The notes under the pieces are model-generated. The model did not search any database. It saw nothing but the letters and a program-made list of their open reading frames with translations, and was not told the DNA's origin. A stretch of DNA of 57,833 bases from Bacillota bacterium (GTDB taxonomy: Bacteria; Bacillota; Limnochordia; Darwinibacteriales; Darwinibacteriaceae): the NCBI GenBank assembly GCA_012520315.1, contig JAAYOM010000113.1:1-57833 (forward strand), given 5' to 3'. How positions within the stretch are numbered: position 1 is the first letter of the stretch; each line of letters begins with the position of its first letter. This document shows positions 34,851 through 40,128 of the stretch, piece after piece. The position numbers and the translations under genes were made by a program.

Positions 34851-35729
34851 ATGGAGCAGATCACCCTACAAGCCTACGCTAAAGTGAATCTGACTTTAGA
34901 CATTCAAGGACGCAGAAAAGACGGCTATCATCTGCTGCGTTCTGTGATGCAGTCCATCTCTTTGGCTGATACTATTACCCTTCAGAAAAAAGGCAGAGGT
35001 CAAGGCATTTCCCTCCACAGCGATCACCCTTCAGTTCCTGATGATGAACACAACATCTGTTGGCGGGCTGCCCAGGCCTTTGAGCAGCACACGCAGCTTT
35101 CGGGGGGTGTTGCCGTTTCCATTTCCTTGGCTAAGAAAATCCCGGTCGCGGCAGGCTTAGGCGGCGGCAGCGCGGACGCCGCGGCTGTACTTTACGGTTT
35201 GAATAAACTGTATGGAACAGGCTTAGAACTTGCCAAGCTGCAGCAGATTGGCCTGACAATTGGGGCGGATGTTCCCTTCTGTCTGCAGGGAGGCACCTGC
35301 CTGGTTGAGGGTATCGGCGAAGCAATAAGGCCGGTAGGGCCATTTCCTTCTGTAACAATGGTTCTGGTTAAGCCCAAGGCTGGAGTTTCCACTGCTCAAA
35401 TTTACCGCGGATTGGATCCTGCGACCTATGGCGGAGACTCTACCGACAGGCTGCTTGAGTTTATGACAAACCGAACCGATACTCCCTTGGCCAGCATCCT
35501 GGAGAATGCTCTGGAATCTGTAACTTCCGTCTTGGTGCCGGAAGTGGGTATCTGGAAGGGGAGACTCTTGGAACATGGTGCCTTAGTTAGCCTAATGAGC
35601 GGCAGCGGGCCCACAGTCTTTGGCCTTTTTAGCGAGGAACTTCCAGCCCAGAGGTTTTTAGAGCGTTTCCAGCATGAAGTTCAGGTCTTTGGGGTTACCT
35701 TAATGGACAGGGGCGTGTGTTCAAGATGA
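34851..35729 (+). CDS. ispE: 4-diphosphocytidyl-2-C-methyl-D-erythritol kinase
   Basis: AKVNLTL, KKIPVAAGLGGGSADAA, GADVPF, MSGSGPT. Start lies between 34839 and 34851. Confidence 0.96.
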   Translation: MEQITLQAYAKVNLTLDIQGRRKDGYHLLRSVMQSISLADTITLQKKGRGQGISLHSDHPSVPDDEHNICWRAAQAFEQHTQLSGGVAVSISLAKKIPVAAGLGGGSADAAAVLYGLNKLYGTGLELAKLQQIGLTIGADVPFCLQGGTCLVEGIGEAIRPVGPFPSVTMVLVKPKAGVSTAQIYRGLDPATYGGDSTDRLLEFMTNRTDTPLASILENALESVTSVLVPEVGIWKGRLLEHGALVSLMSGSGPTVFGLFSEELPAQRFLERFQHEVQVFGVTLMDRGVCSR

Positions 35730-35746
35730 GCAGAGGAGACCAAGAG

Positions 35747-36514
35747 ATGAAAGTAGATGCCGTAGTATTGGCGGGGGCCCCAAATACTGGTCAGTTGCAG
35801 GAAGTGCGTGGGGAGAAATGGGAGGCGGAAATCCCCATTTCAGGCAAACCTATGGTAAATTACGTAATTGAAGCGCTGCAAAGTTCCTCCCGTGTCGGAG
35901 AAATTGTGGTGGTGGCTCCGGCGGAGATCAAAGATGTGCTGGCACCCCATATTAGATGGGTTGAGGCAGGCAGCAGCCTCACCGAGAATATTTTCCGAGC
36001 AATGGACGTTCTAGACAAGAAGAACAATGTACTCTTCGTCACATCTGACGTTCCCTTTATCCACGCCGAGGTAATCGATGACTTTGTGAGCCGCTGCGGC
36101 GAACTGCAGGGTGAAATTTTCTATCCCATTACTTCCAAAGAAGCCACGGAAAAGATGTATCCTGAGACTACGCGCACGTATTTTACCCTTAAAGAAGGAT
36201 CCTTTACCGGGGGCAACATTCTCTTGGCTGCTCCCCAGGCAGTCGTCAATTCGCGCTGGGTAATGGATGAAGTGATCTCCCGGCGCAAGAAACCATGGAA
36301 AATCATAAGGATGCTGGGCTTTTTCTTTATACTCAAGTTTCTCACTAAACAGCTTTCCCTCCGGGAGTTGGAACAGCGGGCGAGTGAACTTCTCGGTCAC
36401 AGCGGCGTCCTGATTATTTCTCCCTATCCGGAACTGAGCAATGATGTCGATAAACCAAGCGATTTACAGCTAGCAGAGAAAACCATTGCTGCCGTGCAAG
36501 ACAAGGAGGCTTAG
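35747..36514 (+). CDS. Nucleotidyltransferase-fold protein (MobA/GT-A-like) of unknown specificity
   Basis: AVVLAG, GKPMVNYVIEAL, TSDVP, NDVDKPSDL. Confidence 0.75.
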   Translation: MKVDAVVLAGAPNTGQLQEVRGEKWEAEIPISGKPMVNYVIEALQSSSRVGEIVVVAPAEIKDVLAPHIRWVEAGSSLTENIFRAMDVLDKKNNVLFVTSDVPFIHAEVIDDFVSRCGELQGEIFYPITSKEATEKMYPETTRTYFTLKEGSFTGGNILLAAPQAVVNSRWVMDEVISRRKKPWKIIRMLGFFFILKFLTKQLSLRELEQRASELLGHSGVLIISPYPELSNDVDKPSDLQLAEKTIAAVQDKEA

Positions 36515-36515
36515 C

Positions 36516-37328
36516 ATGAGGCGAGCACACCGCATTGCGGCTATTACAAAAACTCTGGTGGAAAGGGCAAACCATGTTTTTGCGGTCAGTGAGTTTGTCG
36601 AACTCTTTGATGTGGCCCGCTCCACATTATCGGAAGATCTGGCGATCATCCGGTCTACTTTCAACGCCTTAAACATGGGTAAGGTGGAAACCATCGCGGG
36701 TGCGGTTGGGGGAGTGCGCTATGTACCCCACCTCACAAAGGACCAGATTCGTACCTCAATTGAAGAGATTTGCACCCGTTTGAGGGAACCCGATCGCATT
36801 TTACCAGGGGGCCTGCTTTATATCGATGATTTAATGTCCTCGCCAGCGTTGCTGAGCACGGTAGGCTCCGTTTTCGCCACTGCCTTTGGTGACCGGGATC
36901 CTGAGTATGTGGTTACGGTTGAAACAGCTGGAATTCCAGTGGCTCTACAGACGGCCCATGCCCTGGATGTGCCTCTTGTGGTGGTCCGCAGGCAGAGCCG
37001 GCCCACGGAAGGGCCTGTCCTGACCATGAACTTCTTATCCGGTTCGGCCCGGCAAGTGGAAACAATGTCCCTCTCCAGGCGGGCGCTGCCCGAGGGAGGC
37101 CGGGTGCTCTTGATTGACGACTTTATGAAAGCAGGGGGAACACTGAGGGGCCTTACGGATTTGATGGGTGAATTTGCCTGTACCGTGGTGGGCAAGGGCG
37201 TATTGATTGAAGCGGGCTTGCCCGAAGAAAAGCTGATCGATGATCACCTCCCCTTAGTTTACTTGCGTGAGGTTGACGTCAAGGCGCAGAAAGTCACAGT
37301 TGAGCCCGCCGGCTGGATTTTAGCCTAG
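36516..37328 (+). CDS. purR: Pur operon repressor
   Basis: ARSTLSEDL, GAVGGVRY, RILPGG, PRT motif VLLIDDFMKAGGT. Confidence 0.94.
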   Translation: MRRAHRIAAITKTLVERANHVFAVSEFVELFDVARSTLSEDLAIIRSTFNALNMGKVETIAGAVGGVRYVPHLTKDQIRTSIEEICTRLREPDRILPGGLLYIDDLMSSPALLSTVGSVFATAFGDRDPEYVVTVETAGIPVALQTAHALDVPLVVVRRQSRPTEGPVLTMNFLSGSARQVETMSLSRRALPEGGRVLLIDDFMKAGGTLRGLTDLMGEFACTVVGKGVLIEAGLPEEKLIDDHLPLVYLREVDVKAQKVTVEPAGWILA

Positions 37329-37348
37329 GCATAAATTGCATGATACAA

Positions 37349-37374
37349 GCTCCGCCGGAGTGGGCGGGGTTTTT
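37349..37374 (+). terminator. Intrinsic terminator after purR
   Basis: GCTCCGCC-GGAGTG-GGCGGGGT then TTTT. Confidence 0.7.
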
Positions 37375-37462
37375 CTACGCCAATGACAGACGATCTTAAA
37401 AAACTAGGGAGGAAGTAAACACGTCTTCTCGAAGTGCTTAATGTGGTGAAGGAGGAGAAATA

Positions 37463-38464
37463 ATGGTACAAGCAGCAGCAATTATTTTAGCTGCAGGTCA
37501 GGGCTCAAGAATGAAATCCAAAAAGGCAAAGGTCCTCCATCGGGTTGCAGGCCTCGAGATGGTGAATCACGCGGTGCGCAGCGTAAGACTGGCCGGGATC
37601 GATCAGATTATTGTCGTCATCGGCTATCAGGGCGACAGGGTCCAGGCAGTGCTGGAAGGAGTAACATTGGCTGAGCAGAAGGAGCAGCTCGGCACAGGCC
37701 ATGCTGTTGATCAGTGCCGCCAGCTCCTGGAGGATTTTACCGGGCCGGTTCTGGTTACCTATGGCGATACACCCCTCTTTCGCGGCGAGACTTTTCAGGC
37801 GCTGCTGGAATTTCACAGCCAAAGTCAGGCTGCTGCCACCATTGTAACAGCAATCTTTGACGATCCTGCCGGTTATGGGCGGGTTGTCCGCAACGAAGCA
37901 GGCCATGTGCTGGGTGTTGTGGAGCACAAGGACGCGGATGAGCAGCAGCGGCAGATCAAAGAGATTAATACCGGCACCTATTGTTTCGACAGCAAACTGC
38001 TGTTTCACTATTTAACCCGGATAACACCGGAAAATGCACAGGCTGAGTACTATTTGCCCGACGTATTACCCTTGCTGCTTGAGGGCGGTCACAGGATTGA
38101 GGGTTTTGTATTAGAGGATGCCGCTGAAAGCATGGGTATTAATGATCGTATTCAGCTTGCGGAAGCTGAGGCAATTTTGCGCGACCGTATTTGCGCCTAT
38201 TGGCAAAGACAGGGCGTGACCATTATGGATCCGAAGTCCACCTGGATTGAATGGGATTGTGAAATTGGTCAGGATACGATTATTTACCCCGGGAACTTTA
38301 TTCAGAAAGGGACTAAGATTGGTCAGGACTGCGTAATAGGTCCCAATTGCCATTTAAGCGAAGCCCAGATTGCTGATGGGGTTTTATTGGAAAACACAAT
38401 TGTTTCTGGTAGGGTGGTGGGTAGGGAAGCGAAAATCGCACCTTTTTCGTTGATGACCAAGTAA
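37463..38464 (+). CDS. glmU: GlmU, C-terminally truncated (333 aa): uridyltransferase domain plus the start of the left-handed beta-helix
   Basis: ILAAGQGSRMKS, QLGTGHA, YGDTP, GYGRVVR, EINTG, NAQAEYYL, GINDR; ends at APFSLMTK. Confidence 0.92.
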   Translation: MVQAAAIILAAGQGSRMKSKKAKVLHRVAGLEMVNHAVRSVRLAGIDQIIVVIGYQGDRVQAVLEGVTLAEQKEQLGTGHAVDQCRQLLEDFTGPVLVTYGDTPLFRGETFQALLEFHSQSQAAATIVTAIFDDPAGYGRVVRNEAGHVLGVVEHKDADEQQRQIKEINTGTYCFDSKLLFHYLTRITPENAQAEYYLPDVLPLLLEGGHRIEGFVLEDAAESMGINDRIQLAEAEAILRDRICAYWQRQGVTIMDPKSTWIEWDCEIGQDTIIYPGNFIQKGTKIGQDCVIGPNCHLSEAQIADGVLLENTIVSGRVVGREAKIAPFSLMTK

Positions 38465-38486
38465 AATGGAGGGGTACAGAGCCAAC

Positions 38487-39434
38487 ATGAGACAGGCTAG
38501 TAAGAAATTAAAGGTGTTTGCTGGGAATGCTAACAGGGAGTTGGCCGTCGATATCTGTAGATACCTAGGCTTAGAACTGGGATTATCTGAAATAACACGG
38601 TTTAAGGACGGCGAAATAAGGTGTAAGATCGGGGAGACGGTGCGCGGTTCAGAAGTCTTTATTGTACAGCCATTAAATAGTCCTTCGGCAGAACATATTA
38701 TGGAACTTTTGATCATGATTGATGCCATGAAAAGGGCTTCCGCCAAAGTTGTCTGTCCTGTGATACCCTACTTCGCTTATGCACGGCAGGACCGCAAATC
38801 GCAGCCCAGAGATCCAATTTCAGCCAAACTGCTCGCCAATATCCTAACTGCAGCAGGGGCTGATCGGGTAGTTACACTTGATTTACATGCTGGACAGATT
38901 CAGGGATTCTTTGATATTCCAGTGGATAATTTAAGGGGTATGCCCATTATTGCCGAGTATTTGCAGCAAAAAAGGCTGGAGGACATTATCGTAGTTTCCC
39001 CAGACGTGGGTGGTGTAGTCCGCTCCAGGGAACTTGCCGATCGGCTCCACTGCGGATTGGCCATTGTCGACAAACGGCGTCCGGCGCCGAATGTGGCCCA
39101 GGTTATGCATATCATTGGTGACGTTGAGGGCAAGACGGCGGTTCTGATTGACGATATGATCGACACTGGCGGAACCATCGTCAACGCCGCCAAGGCTCTG
39201 ATCGAGCACGGCGCTAAGGCCGTTTATGCCTGTGCTACCCATGCTGTGTTTTCTGATCCTGCATCTGAGATTCTGCAGGACAGTCCTCTGGGAGAGGTAG
39301 TTGTAACAGACAGCATTCATCTGCCGCCGGCAAAACAGATTCCCAAACTAACAACGCTTTCAGTGGCTCCGCTTTTGGCCGAAGCAATTCGGAGAATCTT
39401 TGAAGAAATACCCGTGAGCATGCTGTTTGACTAA
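38487..39434 (+). CDS. prs: Ribose-phosphate pyrophosphokinase
   Basis: RFKDGE, YARQDRK, DLHAGQIQGFF, VSPDVGG, DDMIDTGGT. Start is 38466 or 38487. Confidence 0.97.
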   Translation: MRQASKKLKVFAGNANRELAVDICRYLGLELGLSEITRFKDGEIRCKIGETVRGSEVFIVQPLNSPSAEHIMELLIMIDAMKRASAKVVCPVIPYFAYARQDRKSQPRDPISAKLLANILTAAGADRVVTLDLHAGQIQGFFDIPVDNLRGMPIIAEYLQQKRLEDIIVVSPDVGGVVRSRELADRLHCGLAIVDKRRPAPNVAQVMHIIGDVEGKTAVLIDDMIDTGGTIVNAAKALIEHGAKAVYACATHAVFSDPASEILQDSPLGEVVVTDSIHLPPAKQIPKLTTLSVAPLLAEAIRRIFEEIPVSMLFD

Positions 39435-39455
39435 AGCTAACAAGAATGGTATTAT
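39427..39455 (+). promoter_or_regulatory. sigmaA promoter of rplY
   Basis: TTGACT-N17-TATTAT with TG extension. Confidence 0.75.
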
Positions 39456-39483
39456 AAGTCGGATGGAAAGGAGGCAACGAACA

Positions 39484-40128
39484 GTGGCAAATTACCAGCT
39501 AAGCGTGGAAGAGAGAACCCAAACCGGTAAATCCTATGCCCGTAAACTTAGAACTGAGGGAAAAATCCCTGCAGTTATCTATGGTTCCGGCAAAGAACCC
39601 ACCATCGTTGAAGTGGTAGTTCGAGATGTAGAGAGGGCGTTGTCTGCCCAGGGCAGTCTAATTGACCTCGACCTTGCAGGGGGAAGAAGGACAGTTCTCG
39701 TCAAGGATATGCATCGTGATCCGGTGCGGGGTACATTGCAGCATGTGGACTTCCATGAAGTCGACCTAACCAAGAAGCTAGAAGCTACGGTACCCATTCG
39801 GGTGGTAGGTGAAGATCAGCGTCCAAGCGACGGTGGTGTAGTCCAAACTCTGCTTTGGGAAGTAACGGTCCTTTGCTTACCTACAGACATTCCAGAATAT
39901 ATTGCAGTTGACGTAAGCGAAGTTGAATTAGACCAAACTGTCACCGTTGCAGATCTCGATTTGCCTGAAGGTATCGAGGTTCTAGCAGATGAGGACGAAT
40001 CAGTTGTTAAGATCGGTGTTCCAGCTGAGGTTGATCTCGGCGACGAAGACGGCGACGCAACTCCAGAAGGTGAAGATGTCGCAGAAGGCGCAGATTCTGA
40101 AGGGGCTTCTGAGTCTGAAGAAGAATAG
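39484..40128 (+). CDS. rplY: 50S ribosomal protein L25/Ctc, long form with acidic tail
   Basis: GKIPAVIYG, HVDFHEV, CLPTDIPE. GTG 39484 follows AAGGAGG. Confidence 0.95.
   Translation: MANYQLSVEERTQTGKSYARKLRTEGKIPAVIYGSGKEPTIVEVVVRDVERALSAQGSLIDLDLAGGRRTVLVKDMHRDPVRGTLQHVDFHEVDLTKKLEATVPIRVVGEDQRPSDGGVVQTLLWEVTVLCLPTDIPEYIAVDVSEVELDQTVTVADLDLPEGIEVLADEDESVVKIGVPAEVDLGDEDGDATPEGEDVAEGADSEGASESEEE

Follow-up and report, generated by a model that had tools for sequence, protein, structure and literature searches.

Short GlmU and a candidate stand-alone GlcN-1-P N-acetyltransferase in an uncultured family of Bacillota

We describe a naturally short GlmU that appears to act as a uridyltransferase only, in a Bacillota genome in which the acetylation of GlcN-1-P is likely carried out by a stand-alone protein of archaeal type, P0001. 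This reading draws on directly observed gene anatomy, sequence conservation, homology, phyletic complementarity, gene neighbourhood and domain fusion. GlmU counts as a universally essential antibiotic target with two functions, and genome-based reconstructions of cell-wall metabolism use it as a marker. Naturally short and split GlmU proteins are already reported in the literature; what is added here is the consistent pairing with a P0001-type partner. The gene lies in a stretch of 57,833 nucleotides (the window) that belongs to a MAG of 142 contigs and 88% completeness (G000, referred to below as the host genome). The features are collected in Table 1.

Table 1. Features of the short glmU locus and of the candidate acetyltransferase gene
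Feature	Position	Strand	Remarks
Terminator-like hairpin and T-run	37351..37374	+	3' of purR; sets purR apart from the glmU-prs unit
Ribosome-binding site AGGAGGAG	37450..37457	+	5 nt 5' of the short glmU ATG; direct sequence reading
Short glmU	37463..38464	+	333 aa; predicted GlcNAc-1-P uridyltransferase only; kept in 24/24 other sampled family genomes
Uridyltransferase (pyrophosphorylase) domain	37463..38146	+	About residues 1-228; Pfam and alignments to 9DQF, 1HM0 and 1G95; boundary approximate, placed by homology
Linker helix joining both domains	38147..38215	+	About residues 229-251; alignment-based, boundary approximate
Left-handed beta-helix stub	38216..38461	+	About residues 252-333; Pfam Hexapep 265-298, LbH 258-326
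prs (ribose-phosphate pyrophosphokinase)	38487..39434	+	Co-oriented, tightly linked to short glmU
P0001	G000:C125:4886-5557		223-aa stand-alone left-handed beta-helix protein, on a separate contig from short glmU

The short glmU gene and its distribution

The original prediction, made from the window alone, held that GlmU lacks most of its acetyltransferase domain, and profile searches bore this out: the match of the 333-aa protein ends at position 329 of about 450. The NCBIfam GlmU equivalogs cover it at profile positions 2-329 of 447-452 only, with scores below the cut-offs of both TIGR01173 (341.5 bits, or 340.4 in a second search; cut-off 366.85) and PRK14354 (411.9; cut-off 450), and it aligns with residues 7-330 of E. 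coli GlmU. Pfam places NTP_transferase at residues 6-246 (E 5e-18) and hexapeptide/LbH matches at 258-326. The uridyltransferase motifs (LAAGQGSRM..K.KVLH, EQLGTGHAV, YGDTP, VEHKDA, INTGTY, EYYLPDV and GINDR) are identical or conservatively changed in the alignment with solved GlmU proteins, with which LAAGQGSRMKSKKAKVLH, in the L-x2-G-x-G-[TS]-R-M...K signature region, also aligns. Mean identity inside the family is 71% for the linker helix; for the beta-helix stub, which stops at the GPFAYLRPG-equivalent motif, it is 61% over 19 family and close-relative loci. The open reading frame ends in KIAPFSLMTK, followed by TAA. By profile and relative alignment, the protein lacks the regions of the catalytic His (E. 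coli His363), the acetyl-CoA site and the C-terminal arm. Since the region with the catalytic His and the acetyl-CoA site is absent and the uridyltransferase motifs are intact, the sequence supports the predicted monofunctional uridyltransferase. The remaining beta-helix turns presumably keep the protein trimeric.

The close linkage to prs was likewise confirmed, together with the claim that no frameshifted remainder follows glmU. The prs frame is open from an ATG at 38466, 1 nt past the glmU stop, and the Met that is conserved among relatives lies at 38487, 22 nt past the stop and preceded by GGAGGGG. No remnant of the C-terminal GlmU domain was found in any frame. The terminator-like site downstream of purR is the only one in positions 37250-39600, and the same scan found none in the glmU-prs gap. 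Same-strand adjacency of glmU and prs was found in all examined loci, of the short form and of the full-length form.

As the original prediction had proposed, GlmU length was compared among relatives. Each of the 24 other family genomes in the sample has the short gene; in one of them (G007) an interruption splits it into two matches that lie in different frames. Where a sampled sister family has a complete gene (f2-f5 and f7), it is full-length glmU-prs, and the GlmU proteins of these families share 47-60% identity with the short one. The host family belongs to the abundant, uncultured Bacillota of anaerobic digesters.

The fragmentation and incompleteness of the MAG could be taken to favour an assembly artefact or a decaying pseudogene. 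Against this stands the recurrence of one end point in 19 of 19 separately assembled loci (13 family genomes and the six nearest public relatives), all with the same terminal motif, with prs 8-24 nt downstream and free of frameshifts. Database records place the identical 333-aa protein on 12 contigs and the short GlmU of one relative on 126, one of which measures 2.9 Mb. Together with the family-wide occurrence and the intact active-site motifs, this effectively refutes an artefact or pseudogene already, and we give it next to no weight. The original prediction had named an assembly deletion at 38464 and a second full-length glmU as findings that would overturn it. There is no such deletion, and no second glmU was found in the host genome or among the 24 other family genomes; a detached C-terminal domain of the bacterial type was not found in the host genome either. 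With a MAG that is 88% complete, the failure to find glmS or a second glmU is provisional as regards the host genome itself, and the family pattern supports both absences.

The stand-alone protein P0001

The only match to GlmU positions 297-431 in the host genome is P0001, which gives the first route named in the original prediction, GlcNAc-1-P from a separate acetyltransferase, a candidate on another contig. P0001 matches the acetyltransferase half of the archaeal profile Arch_glmU (TIGR03992, positions 213-390 of 393, E 8e-46); its match to the bacterial GlmU profile is far weaker (E 8e-14). At 156.7 bits, P0001 stays under the TIGR03992 cut-off for the whole protein (292.1), which is to be expected of a match to one half. 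P0001 does not have the bifunctional architecture: no NTP_transferase domain was found in the 223-aa ORF. Its orthologues are 207-245 aa long, and stand-alone proteins of this type gave more than 7,600 matches at E <= 1e-10.

ST0452 of Sulfolobus tokodaii is a bifunctional sugar-1-phosphate nucleotidylyltransferase/acetyltransferase. In the comparison with it (E 4e-23), H120, Y123 and N143 of P0001 fall opposite its catalytic residues H308, Y311 and N331. In a set of 21 sequences, stand-alone, fused and archaeal, His120, Asn143, Glu106 and Lys108 do not vary, and Tyr123 and Arg90 are at least 90% conserved; the E-x-K and Arg positions are shared with bacterial GlmU. The AlphaFold model of P0001 (pLDDT 93.5) has the left-handed beta-helix fold, and its top fold matches in the PDB are chains of ST0452 (TM 0.68-0.72, E down to 4.6e-12). 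The homology to the C-terminal domain of ST0452 includes the preceding PW helix. In contrast to ST0452, P0001 is bacterial, has no nucleotidyltransferase domain, and belongs with its approximately 220 aa to a very large stand-alone family. ST0452 is active on GlcN-1-P and acetylates GalN-1-P as well. P0001 is most likely a GlcN-1-P N-acetyltransferase that supplies the missing step, for which phyletic complementarity, neighbourhood and fusion give indirect support, although its substrate could be another amino-sugar phosphate instead.

The distribution of P0001 follows the truncation of GlmU. Orthologues with 56-82% identity occur in 23 of the 24 family genomes and in G039, the GlmU of which is short as well. 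They are absent from all 14 relatives with a full-length or contig-cut GlmU, and from G038, where no GlmU was found either. One family member (G019, 94% complete) has no detectable orthologue. In a sample of 250 genomes from the phylum, the stand-alone LbH protein is present in all seven genomes with a genuine short GlmU and in 8 of 10 without GlmU. Only four genomes with full-length GlmU carry it; therefore, the protein is not solely a replacement. With families as units, the association gives a Fisher p of about 7e-11, a rough value since related genomes are not independent. The apparent counter-examples in this sample all turned out to be full-length or disrupted by assembly: a run of N in G106, glmU cut at contig ends in G145 and G095, a frameshift in G194, and in the f32 proteins an internal deletion with the C-domain kept.

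Gene neighbourhoods and fusions place the LbH protein near hexosamine metabolism in other lineages. The gene order is glmM-LbH-nagB-glmS in G108 and LbH-glmM-nagB in G284, with glmM above the TIGR01455 cut-off in both. In P0124, found on at least three contigs, a UAP/NagU-type uridyltransferase (PF01704) is fused to a P0001-like domain (44% identity), and five of five GlmU-less genomes of family f53 combine a PF01704 gene with a stand-alone LbH gene. The host genome gave no PF01704 match; the search detects the family in the f53 genomes and had no match in the initial control genomes. Within the family under study, the P0001-type gene follows, in each of 11 loci and at a distance of 3-13 nt, a DUF368 (PF04018) undecaprenyl-phosphate translocase-like gene, in the conserved order Crp/Fnr-DUF368-LbH, a cell-envelope context in which neither short glmU nor any hexosamine gene adjoins. 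An Fnr-like N-terminal Cys cluster was not visible in the 199-aa Crp/Fnr frame.

Two other loci of the host genome were considered as the partner of short GlmU and rejected. Contig C26 encodes, 3' of flagellin, an Arch_GlmM-like mutase (502 aa, 303 bits, below the cut-off) and a 243-aa nucleotidyltransferase that resembles the N-terminal half of Arch_glmU; this pair was dismissed because just three of the six further family genomes that were tested have it, and none of the other lineages with a short GlmU or without GlmU. The 838-aa NTP-transferase-LbH-PMM protein on C93 covers with its LbH part only the non-catalytic GlmU positions 242-339, and its best model is mannose-1-P guanylyltransferase. 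ORFs of about 810-857 aa that resemble it, also in their N-terminal nucleotidyltransferase match, occur in other Bacillota, some of which have full-length GlmU.

Proposed pathway and competing explanations

Searches of the host genome for the other pathway genes returned glmM (544 bits; cut-off 447.55), nagA, nagB, two copies of murA and six ROK-family kinases; glmS was not found, and among the 24 other family genomes it turned up in just 5. In the proposed pathway, GlmM would convert GlcN-6-P to GlcN-1-P, P0001 would acetylate this to GlcNAc-1-P, and short GlmU would join GlcNAc-1-P and UTP to UDP-GlcNAc, which would feed the two MurA copies. GlcN-6-P would be provided by NagB run towards amination, or by GlcNAc salvage via NagA. 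In evolution, the stand-alone enzyme would have been gained first and the redundant C-domain of GlmU lost later, which would make GlmU an example of repeated domain loss following the gain of a redundant stand-alone enzyme. Both states occur in family f15.

The original prediction had also raised a possible GlcNAc auxotrophy. In that case no GlcN-1-P acetyltransferase would exist and GlcNAc-1-P would come from imported or recycled GlcNAc only. There is a precedent in Capnocytophaga canimorsus, which has a monofunctional GlmU and requires GlcNAc from its host (PMC4358021), and the missing glmS as well as the presence of nagA, nagB and the six kinases would fit. C. canimorsus, however, has no GlmM, whereas the host genome has one that would make the substrate of the acetyltransferase, and a conserved candidate for this enzyme tracks the truncation of GlmU. 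Salvage through NagA yields GlcN-6-P, so that re-acetylation at the 1-phosphate stage would still be needed, and no mutase for the conversion of GlcNAc-6-P to GlcNAc-1-P was identified. We therefore regard auxotrophy as highly improbable. Given GlmM and a candidate for the GlcN-1-P acetyltransferase in the genome, the truncation lends it no support, and since acetylation is most likely performed by a separate enzyme, a requirement for cell-wall sugars need not be expected from the short gene by itself. An acetylation in the eukaryote-like order, with a GNA1-type GNAT acting on GlcN-6-P, a PGM/PMM mutase and then short GlmU, and with an unrelated role for the LbH protein, is also very unlikely. 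Additional PGM/PMM paralogues do exist (on C26 and C63), and GNAT genes are common, one of them adjoining the LbH gene in family f15. But nothing qualified as a specific GNA1 candidate, the mutase and its neighbour on C26 are accessory, and this order leaves unexplained why the occurrence of the LbH protein is so tightly complementary to the loss of the C-domain, why it neighbours glmM and glmS, and why it is fused to a uridyltransferase.

That the LbH protein acts on another substrate, for instance GalN-1-P or some nucleotide amino sugar destined for a surface glycan, or serves the envelope together with DUF368 while GlcNAc-1-P comes from another source, we consider unlikely. Its position away from hexosamine genes in the family, the four genomes that retain full-length GlmU alongside it, fusions of P0001-type LbH to HAD and DeoC-like domains, and the diverse substrates of LbH acyltransferases would all agree with such a role. 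On the other hand, of the characterised homologues the nearest is the domain of ST0452 that acetylates GlcN-1-P and GalN-1-P, and its catalytic constellation is conserved. The phyletic pattern of the LbH protein, its glmM-nagB-glmS neighbourhoods, seen in two lineages, and its UDPGP fusion are all specific to UDP-GlcNAc synthesis. Acetylation of GlcN-1-P by P0001 thus remains our preferred explanation.

The two parts of this arrangement have counterparts in known systems. In canonical bifunctional GlmU (TIGR01173; E. coli, S. pneumoniae, M. tuberculosis), the N-terminal domain, the linker and the first helix turns are orthologous to short GlmU, and the glmU-prs synteny is the same; short GlmU differs in the lack of about 120 C-terminal residues, the part in which full-length relatives have the C-terminal arm and the motifs VEIKN, H..Y.GD and GAGT....NYDG. 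It resembles the engineered E. coli protein Tr331 (residues 1-331; PDB 1FWY/1FXJ), to residues 7-329 of which it aligns. Tr331 has uridyltransferase activity only and replaced an essential GlcNAc-1-P uridyltransferase in vivo (PMC4358021). While Tr331 is a laboratory construct, short GlmU is a natural truncation, fixed family-wide and still linked to prs. A natural uridyltransferase-only enzyme for UDP-GlcNAc is known from C. canimorsus and other Bacteroidetes; C. canimorsus lacks both GlmM and a GlcN-1-P acetyltransferase and is a GlcNAc auxotroph, and its enzyme is distant from GlmU, with 27% similarity to the closest bifunctional relative (PMC4358021). The host genome differs from it by the presence of glmM and of the candidate acetyltransferase.

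A preprint on NagU of S. aureus, the survey of which comprises NagU-bearing species only, describes some species with just an N-terminal GlmU fragment, for which an 'unidentified acetyltransferase' was inferred, and others with a C-terminal fragment beside NagU or with separately encoded halves (bioRxiv 10.64898/2026.06.23.733835). Unlike these cases, the host genome has no NagU-type gene; family f53 fits the combination of NagU with a stand-alone acetyltransferase. The preprint neither ties the acetyltransferase to the archaeal-type LbH family nor shows a family-wide complementarity, and P0001 is a testable candidate for the enzyme that it postulates.

A tentative and rather doubtful idea is that the approximately 220-aa archaeal-type LbH protein is a general bacterial GlcN-1-P N-acetyltransferase that repeatedly displaced the acetyltransferase domain of GlmU in Bacillota, in at least ten of the sampled families, with truncation points from residue 241 to residue 349 or with GlmU lost altogether, and that the splitting lets acetylation be regulated along with lipid-carrier recycling. 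The LbH protein would then pair with short GlmU here and with NagU-type enzymes in f53. In the family under study its gene would be co-transcribed with those for the Crp/Fnr-type regulator and the DUF368 translocase-like protein, and the split may uncouple the regulation of the committed acetylation from that of uridylation (glmU-prs). If this holds, and if NagB replaces GlmS, non-canonical enzymes would stand in for two of the canonical bacterial activities that make UDP-GlcNAc.

Metabolic models of such genomes would go wrong by predicting a gap, or an auxotrophy for GlcNAc, and this could misguide cultivation. In the databases, the short gene is named 'bifunctional GlmU' or 'NTP transferase' and its partner 'UDP-GlcNAc pyrophosphorylase'; all three names mislead, and the partner has no pyrophosphorylase domain.

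Structure and conservation of the short GlmU

The short GlmU contains a nucleotidyltransferase domain (Pfam; residues 6-246) followed by hexapeptide/left-handed beta-helix (LbH) repeats (258-326). The NCBIfam GlmU equivalogs all scored below cut-off, each covering only profile positions ~2-329 of 447-488, and the alignment with solved structures spans residues 7-330 in E. coli GlmU and 7-329 in its engineered 331-aa fragment 1FWY/1FXJ. Its uridyltransferase motifs (LAAGxGSRM...K.KVLH, EQLGTGHAV, GDTP, VEHKDA, INTGTY, EYYLPDV, NDR) are the same as in solved GlmU or conservatively changed. In a multiple alignment it stops at the motif corresponding to GPFAYLRPG of full-length relatives and lacks their VEIKN, H..Y.GD and GAGT....NYDG motifs as well as the C-terminal arm. 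These alignments therefore confirm the truncation described originally, and, judged from its sequence, the protein cannot be an acetyltransferase. The inference of a monofunctional uridyltransferase is likewise supported as far as activities can be predicted from intact uridyltransferase motifs and a missing acetyltransferase region. Such proteins are named 'NTP transferase domain-containing protein' by NCBI and 'bifunctional' by JGI.

The gene order in the window (ispE, MobA-like nucleotidyltransferase gene, purR, short glmU, prs, ctc, pth, mfd) is that of the classical Bacillota glmU locus. No terminator-like hairpin is present between short glmU and prs, and the prs frame is open from 1 nt past the glmU stop. 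The MobA-like protein (PF12804, E 2e-11; no NCBIfam match at E <= 1e-8), whose ORF shares a few codons with each neighbour, was rejected as a GlmU substitute, because it comprises an N-terminal nucleotide-binding part only.

Positions of the features described (G000, the genome containing the window, except for the last two rows)
Feature	Position	Strand	Remarks
short glmU	window 37463-38464	+	333 aa, C-terminus ...KIAPFSLMTK
terminator-like hairpin	window 37351-37374		3' of purR
AGGAGGAG site	5 nt 5' of short glmU ATG		read in sequence
prs Met aligning with relatives	window 38487		22 nt past short glmU stop
MobA-like nucleotidyltransferase	window 35717-36514	+	265 aa, between ispE and purR
nagB, nagA	G000:C113:27454-29362		outside window
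glmM	G000:C113:36095-37399		outside window
P0001	G000:C125:4886-5557		223 aa, stand-alone LbH
C26 pair	G000:C26:9843-12083 (L036:1423-3663)		immediately 3' of flagellin gene
C93 protein	G000:C93:12788-15300 (L003:1381-3537 and beyond)		838 aa
G108 glmM, longest frame	L056:1519-3138		539 aa
P0124	L170:6001-7857		618 aa, fusion

An assembly deletion at the end of glmU, which would have refuted the original prediction, is itself refuted: of 40 relatives searched, the 24 from this family all gave a correspondingly short match (profile 2-328 to 2-331), glmU stops at one and the same point and prs lies 8-24 nt further on in 19 of 19 loci of family members and nearest public relatives, and the exact 333-aa protein is recorded on 12 contigs. 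A second, full-length glmU was sought in G000, a metagenome-assembled genome (MAG; 142 contigs, 88% complete), and not found. Mean identity to the window protein within the family is 71.5% for the catalytic domain and 61% for the beta-helix stub; in one member (G007) the match is split over two frames. The short glmU is a real gene, not an artefact or pseudogene. GlmU is short throughout the sampled family genomes and full length in relatives from families f2, f3, f4, f5 and f7, except for G028 (glmU cut by a contig end) and G038 (no GlmU match found). It is also short in G039, from f6 in the same class. Full-length relatives share the glmU-prs linkage; within the order, the spacing between the two genes ranges from -17 to +9 nt. 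A different shortening was observed in f32 (locus L050, G063:C46; relatives G146 and G213), where GlmU (426-463 aa) has an internal deletion of ~25 profile positions at the beta-helix start, its matches to 2-287 and 312-451 lying in a single frame.

A stand-alone LbH protein as candidate acetyltransferase

P0001, encoded on a different contig from glmU, is the only G000 sequence matching the GlmU C-terminal profile (positions 297-431). Among family profiles it fits best to the C-terminal half of archaeal bifunctional GlmU (TIGR03992, positions 213-390 of 393, E 8e-46) and far less well to bacterial GlmU (E 8e-14). Among proteins of solved structure, Sulfolobus tokodaii ST0452, which reportedly acetylates GlcN-1-P and GalN-1-P, matches best (E 4e-23). 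H120, Y123 and N143 of P0001 align with H308, Y311 and N331 of ST0452; comparison of 21 sequences (stand-alone, fused and archaeal) showed no variation at H120, N143, E106 and K108 and little at Y123 and R90. For the AlphaFold model (pLDDT 93.5), ST0452 again ranked first among PDB folds (TM 0.72), above GlmU and other LbH acyltransferases. An origin of P0001 as a detached fragment of the resident GlmU was rejected; its identity to GlmU C-domains from sister families is 23-31% and covers short stretches. Some homologues are labelled Limnochordia bacterium.

Of the 24 family genomes, 23 have an orthologue (56-82% identity, ORF of ~220 aa), the exception being G019 (94% complete), and G039 has one at 45% identity. 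None was found in the 14 relatives whose GlmU is full length or cut by a contig end, nor in G038. In an evenly drawn phylum sample (250 genomes, each >= 90% complete), 19 carried a P0001-like gene: seven with a genuinely short GlmU ending at profile position 241 to 349 (G011, G279, G046, G169, G284, G162, G050), eight without GlmU (five of f53, plus G108, G183 and G214) and four with full-length GlmU. Other weak GlmU matches in this sample were rejected as full length or assembly-broken. Only two sample genomes had neither gene, and none had a short GlmU without a stand-alone LbH. With families as units the association gave a Fisher p of ~7e-11, which is only rough because relatives are not independent. 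All four f15 genomes carry the LbH gene and GlmU is truncated in one genus only, which fits gain of the stand-alone LbH before loss of the GlmU C-domain.

Gene neighbourhoods and fusions

In the family of G000, the LbH gene lies 3-13 nt past a PF04018/DUF368 undecaprenyl-phosphate translocase-like gene, and a Crp/Fnr-type regulator gene precedes this pair (both 11/11 loci). Elsewhere it lies within glmM - LbH - nagB-like - glmS (G108) or LbH - glmM - nagB-like (G284), both glmM exceeding the TIGR01455 cut-off. From its first possible start the G108 glmM frame overlaps the LbH gene and encodes an N-terminal HTH_3/XRE-type DNA-binding domain; this putative HTH-GlmM fusion, read from the longest start, would be unusual.

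All five GlmU-less f53 genomes combine a PF01704 gene with a stand-alone LbH. In P0124, a PF01704 UAP/NagU-type uridyltransferase is fused to a full P0001-like domain (44% identity), and this fusion occurs on several gut-metagenome contigs. By its domain content P0124 is a putative natural 'neo-GlmU', joining a eukaryote-like UDPGP/UAP uridyltransferase to an archaeal-type acetyltransferase domain. The same LbH domain also occurs joined to a DeoC/LacD-type aldolase domain in P0121 and to a HAD hydrolase domain in P0126. For P0166, rescanning confirmed a fragment of a GlmS-like class-II glutamine amidotransferase, while its LbH part comes from a precomputed domain list only.

UDP-GlcNAc supply and known short GlmU proteins

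A search for the upstream genes in G000 identified glmM (544 bits, above cut-off), located after a YbbR-domain (cdaR-like) gene, two murA, nagA and nagB, but no glmS. With glmM and the candidate acetyltransferase P0001 present, the GlcNAc auxotrophy initially considered possible is not implied by the short glmU. None of the 41 genomes searched lacks both glmS and nagB; among the other family genomes glmS occurs in only 5/24 and nagB in 24/24. The probable source of GlcN-6-P is therefore NagB, which would use fructose-6-P and ammonium, or salvage via a ROK kinase and NagA. The glmS/nagB distribution, together with the position of nagA-nagB beside housekeeping genes (immediately 5' of a yvcK/CofD-family gene, a VanW-like gene and whiA), points to an anabolic role of NagB, which would be plausible for an ammonium-rich habitat. 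Among public genomes, the nearest relatives are Bacillota MAGs whose isolate names follow the AS..BPME/BPTH pattern, which we take to be that of an anaerobic-digester MAG collection.

Short or split GlmU is already known as a kind. Tr331, an engineered E. coli GlmU fragment, has uridyltransferase activity only and works in vivo, and C. canimorsus has a natural monofunctional GlmU, is a GlcNAc auxotroph and, unlike G000, has no GlmM (PMC4358021). Among NagU-bearing species, a 2026 preprint on NagU of S. aureus (bioRxiv 10.64898/2026.06.23.733835) describes GlmU reduced to its N-terminal half, GlmU reduced to its C-terminal half and both halves encoded separately; where the N-terminal half occurs alone, it infers an 'unidentified acetyltransferase'. 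New here are a short GlmU fixed family-wide in a lineage without NagU, the proposal of an archaeal-type stand-alone LbH, with predicted acetyltransferase activity, as its partner, and the systematic complementarity of this LbH with GlmU C-domain loss.

G000 encodes further sugar-nucleotide proteins. The C26 pair consists of a 502-aa Arch_GlmM-like mutase (303 bits, below cut-off) followed, with a 0-nt gap, by a 243-aa nucleotidyltransferase for which archaeal GlmU, in its N-terminal half, is the best match. The pair occurs in only 3/6 other family genomes tested and may supply a sugar nucleotide for a glycan on flagellin or the cell surface. The C93 protein combines nucleotidyltransferase, non-catalytic LbH and PGM/PMM mutase domains (best model, mannose-1-P guanylyltransferase), and ORFs of ~810-857 aa with the same N-terminal nucleotidyltransferase match occur in other Bacillota genomes.
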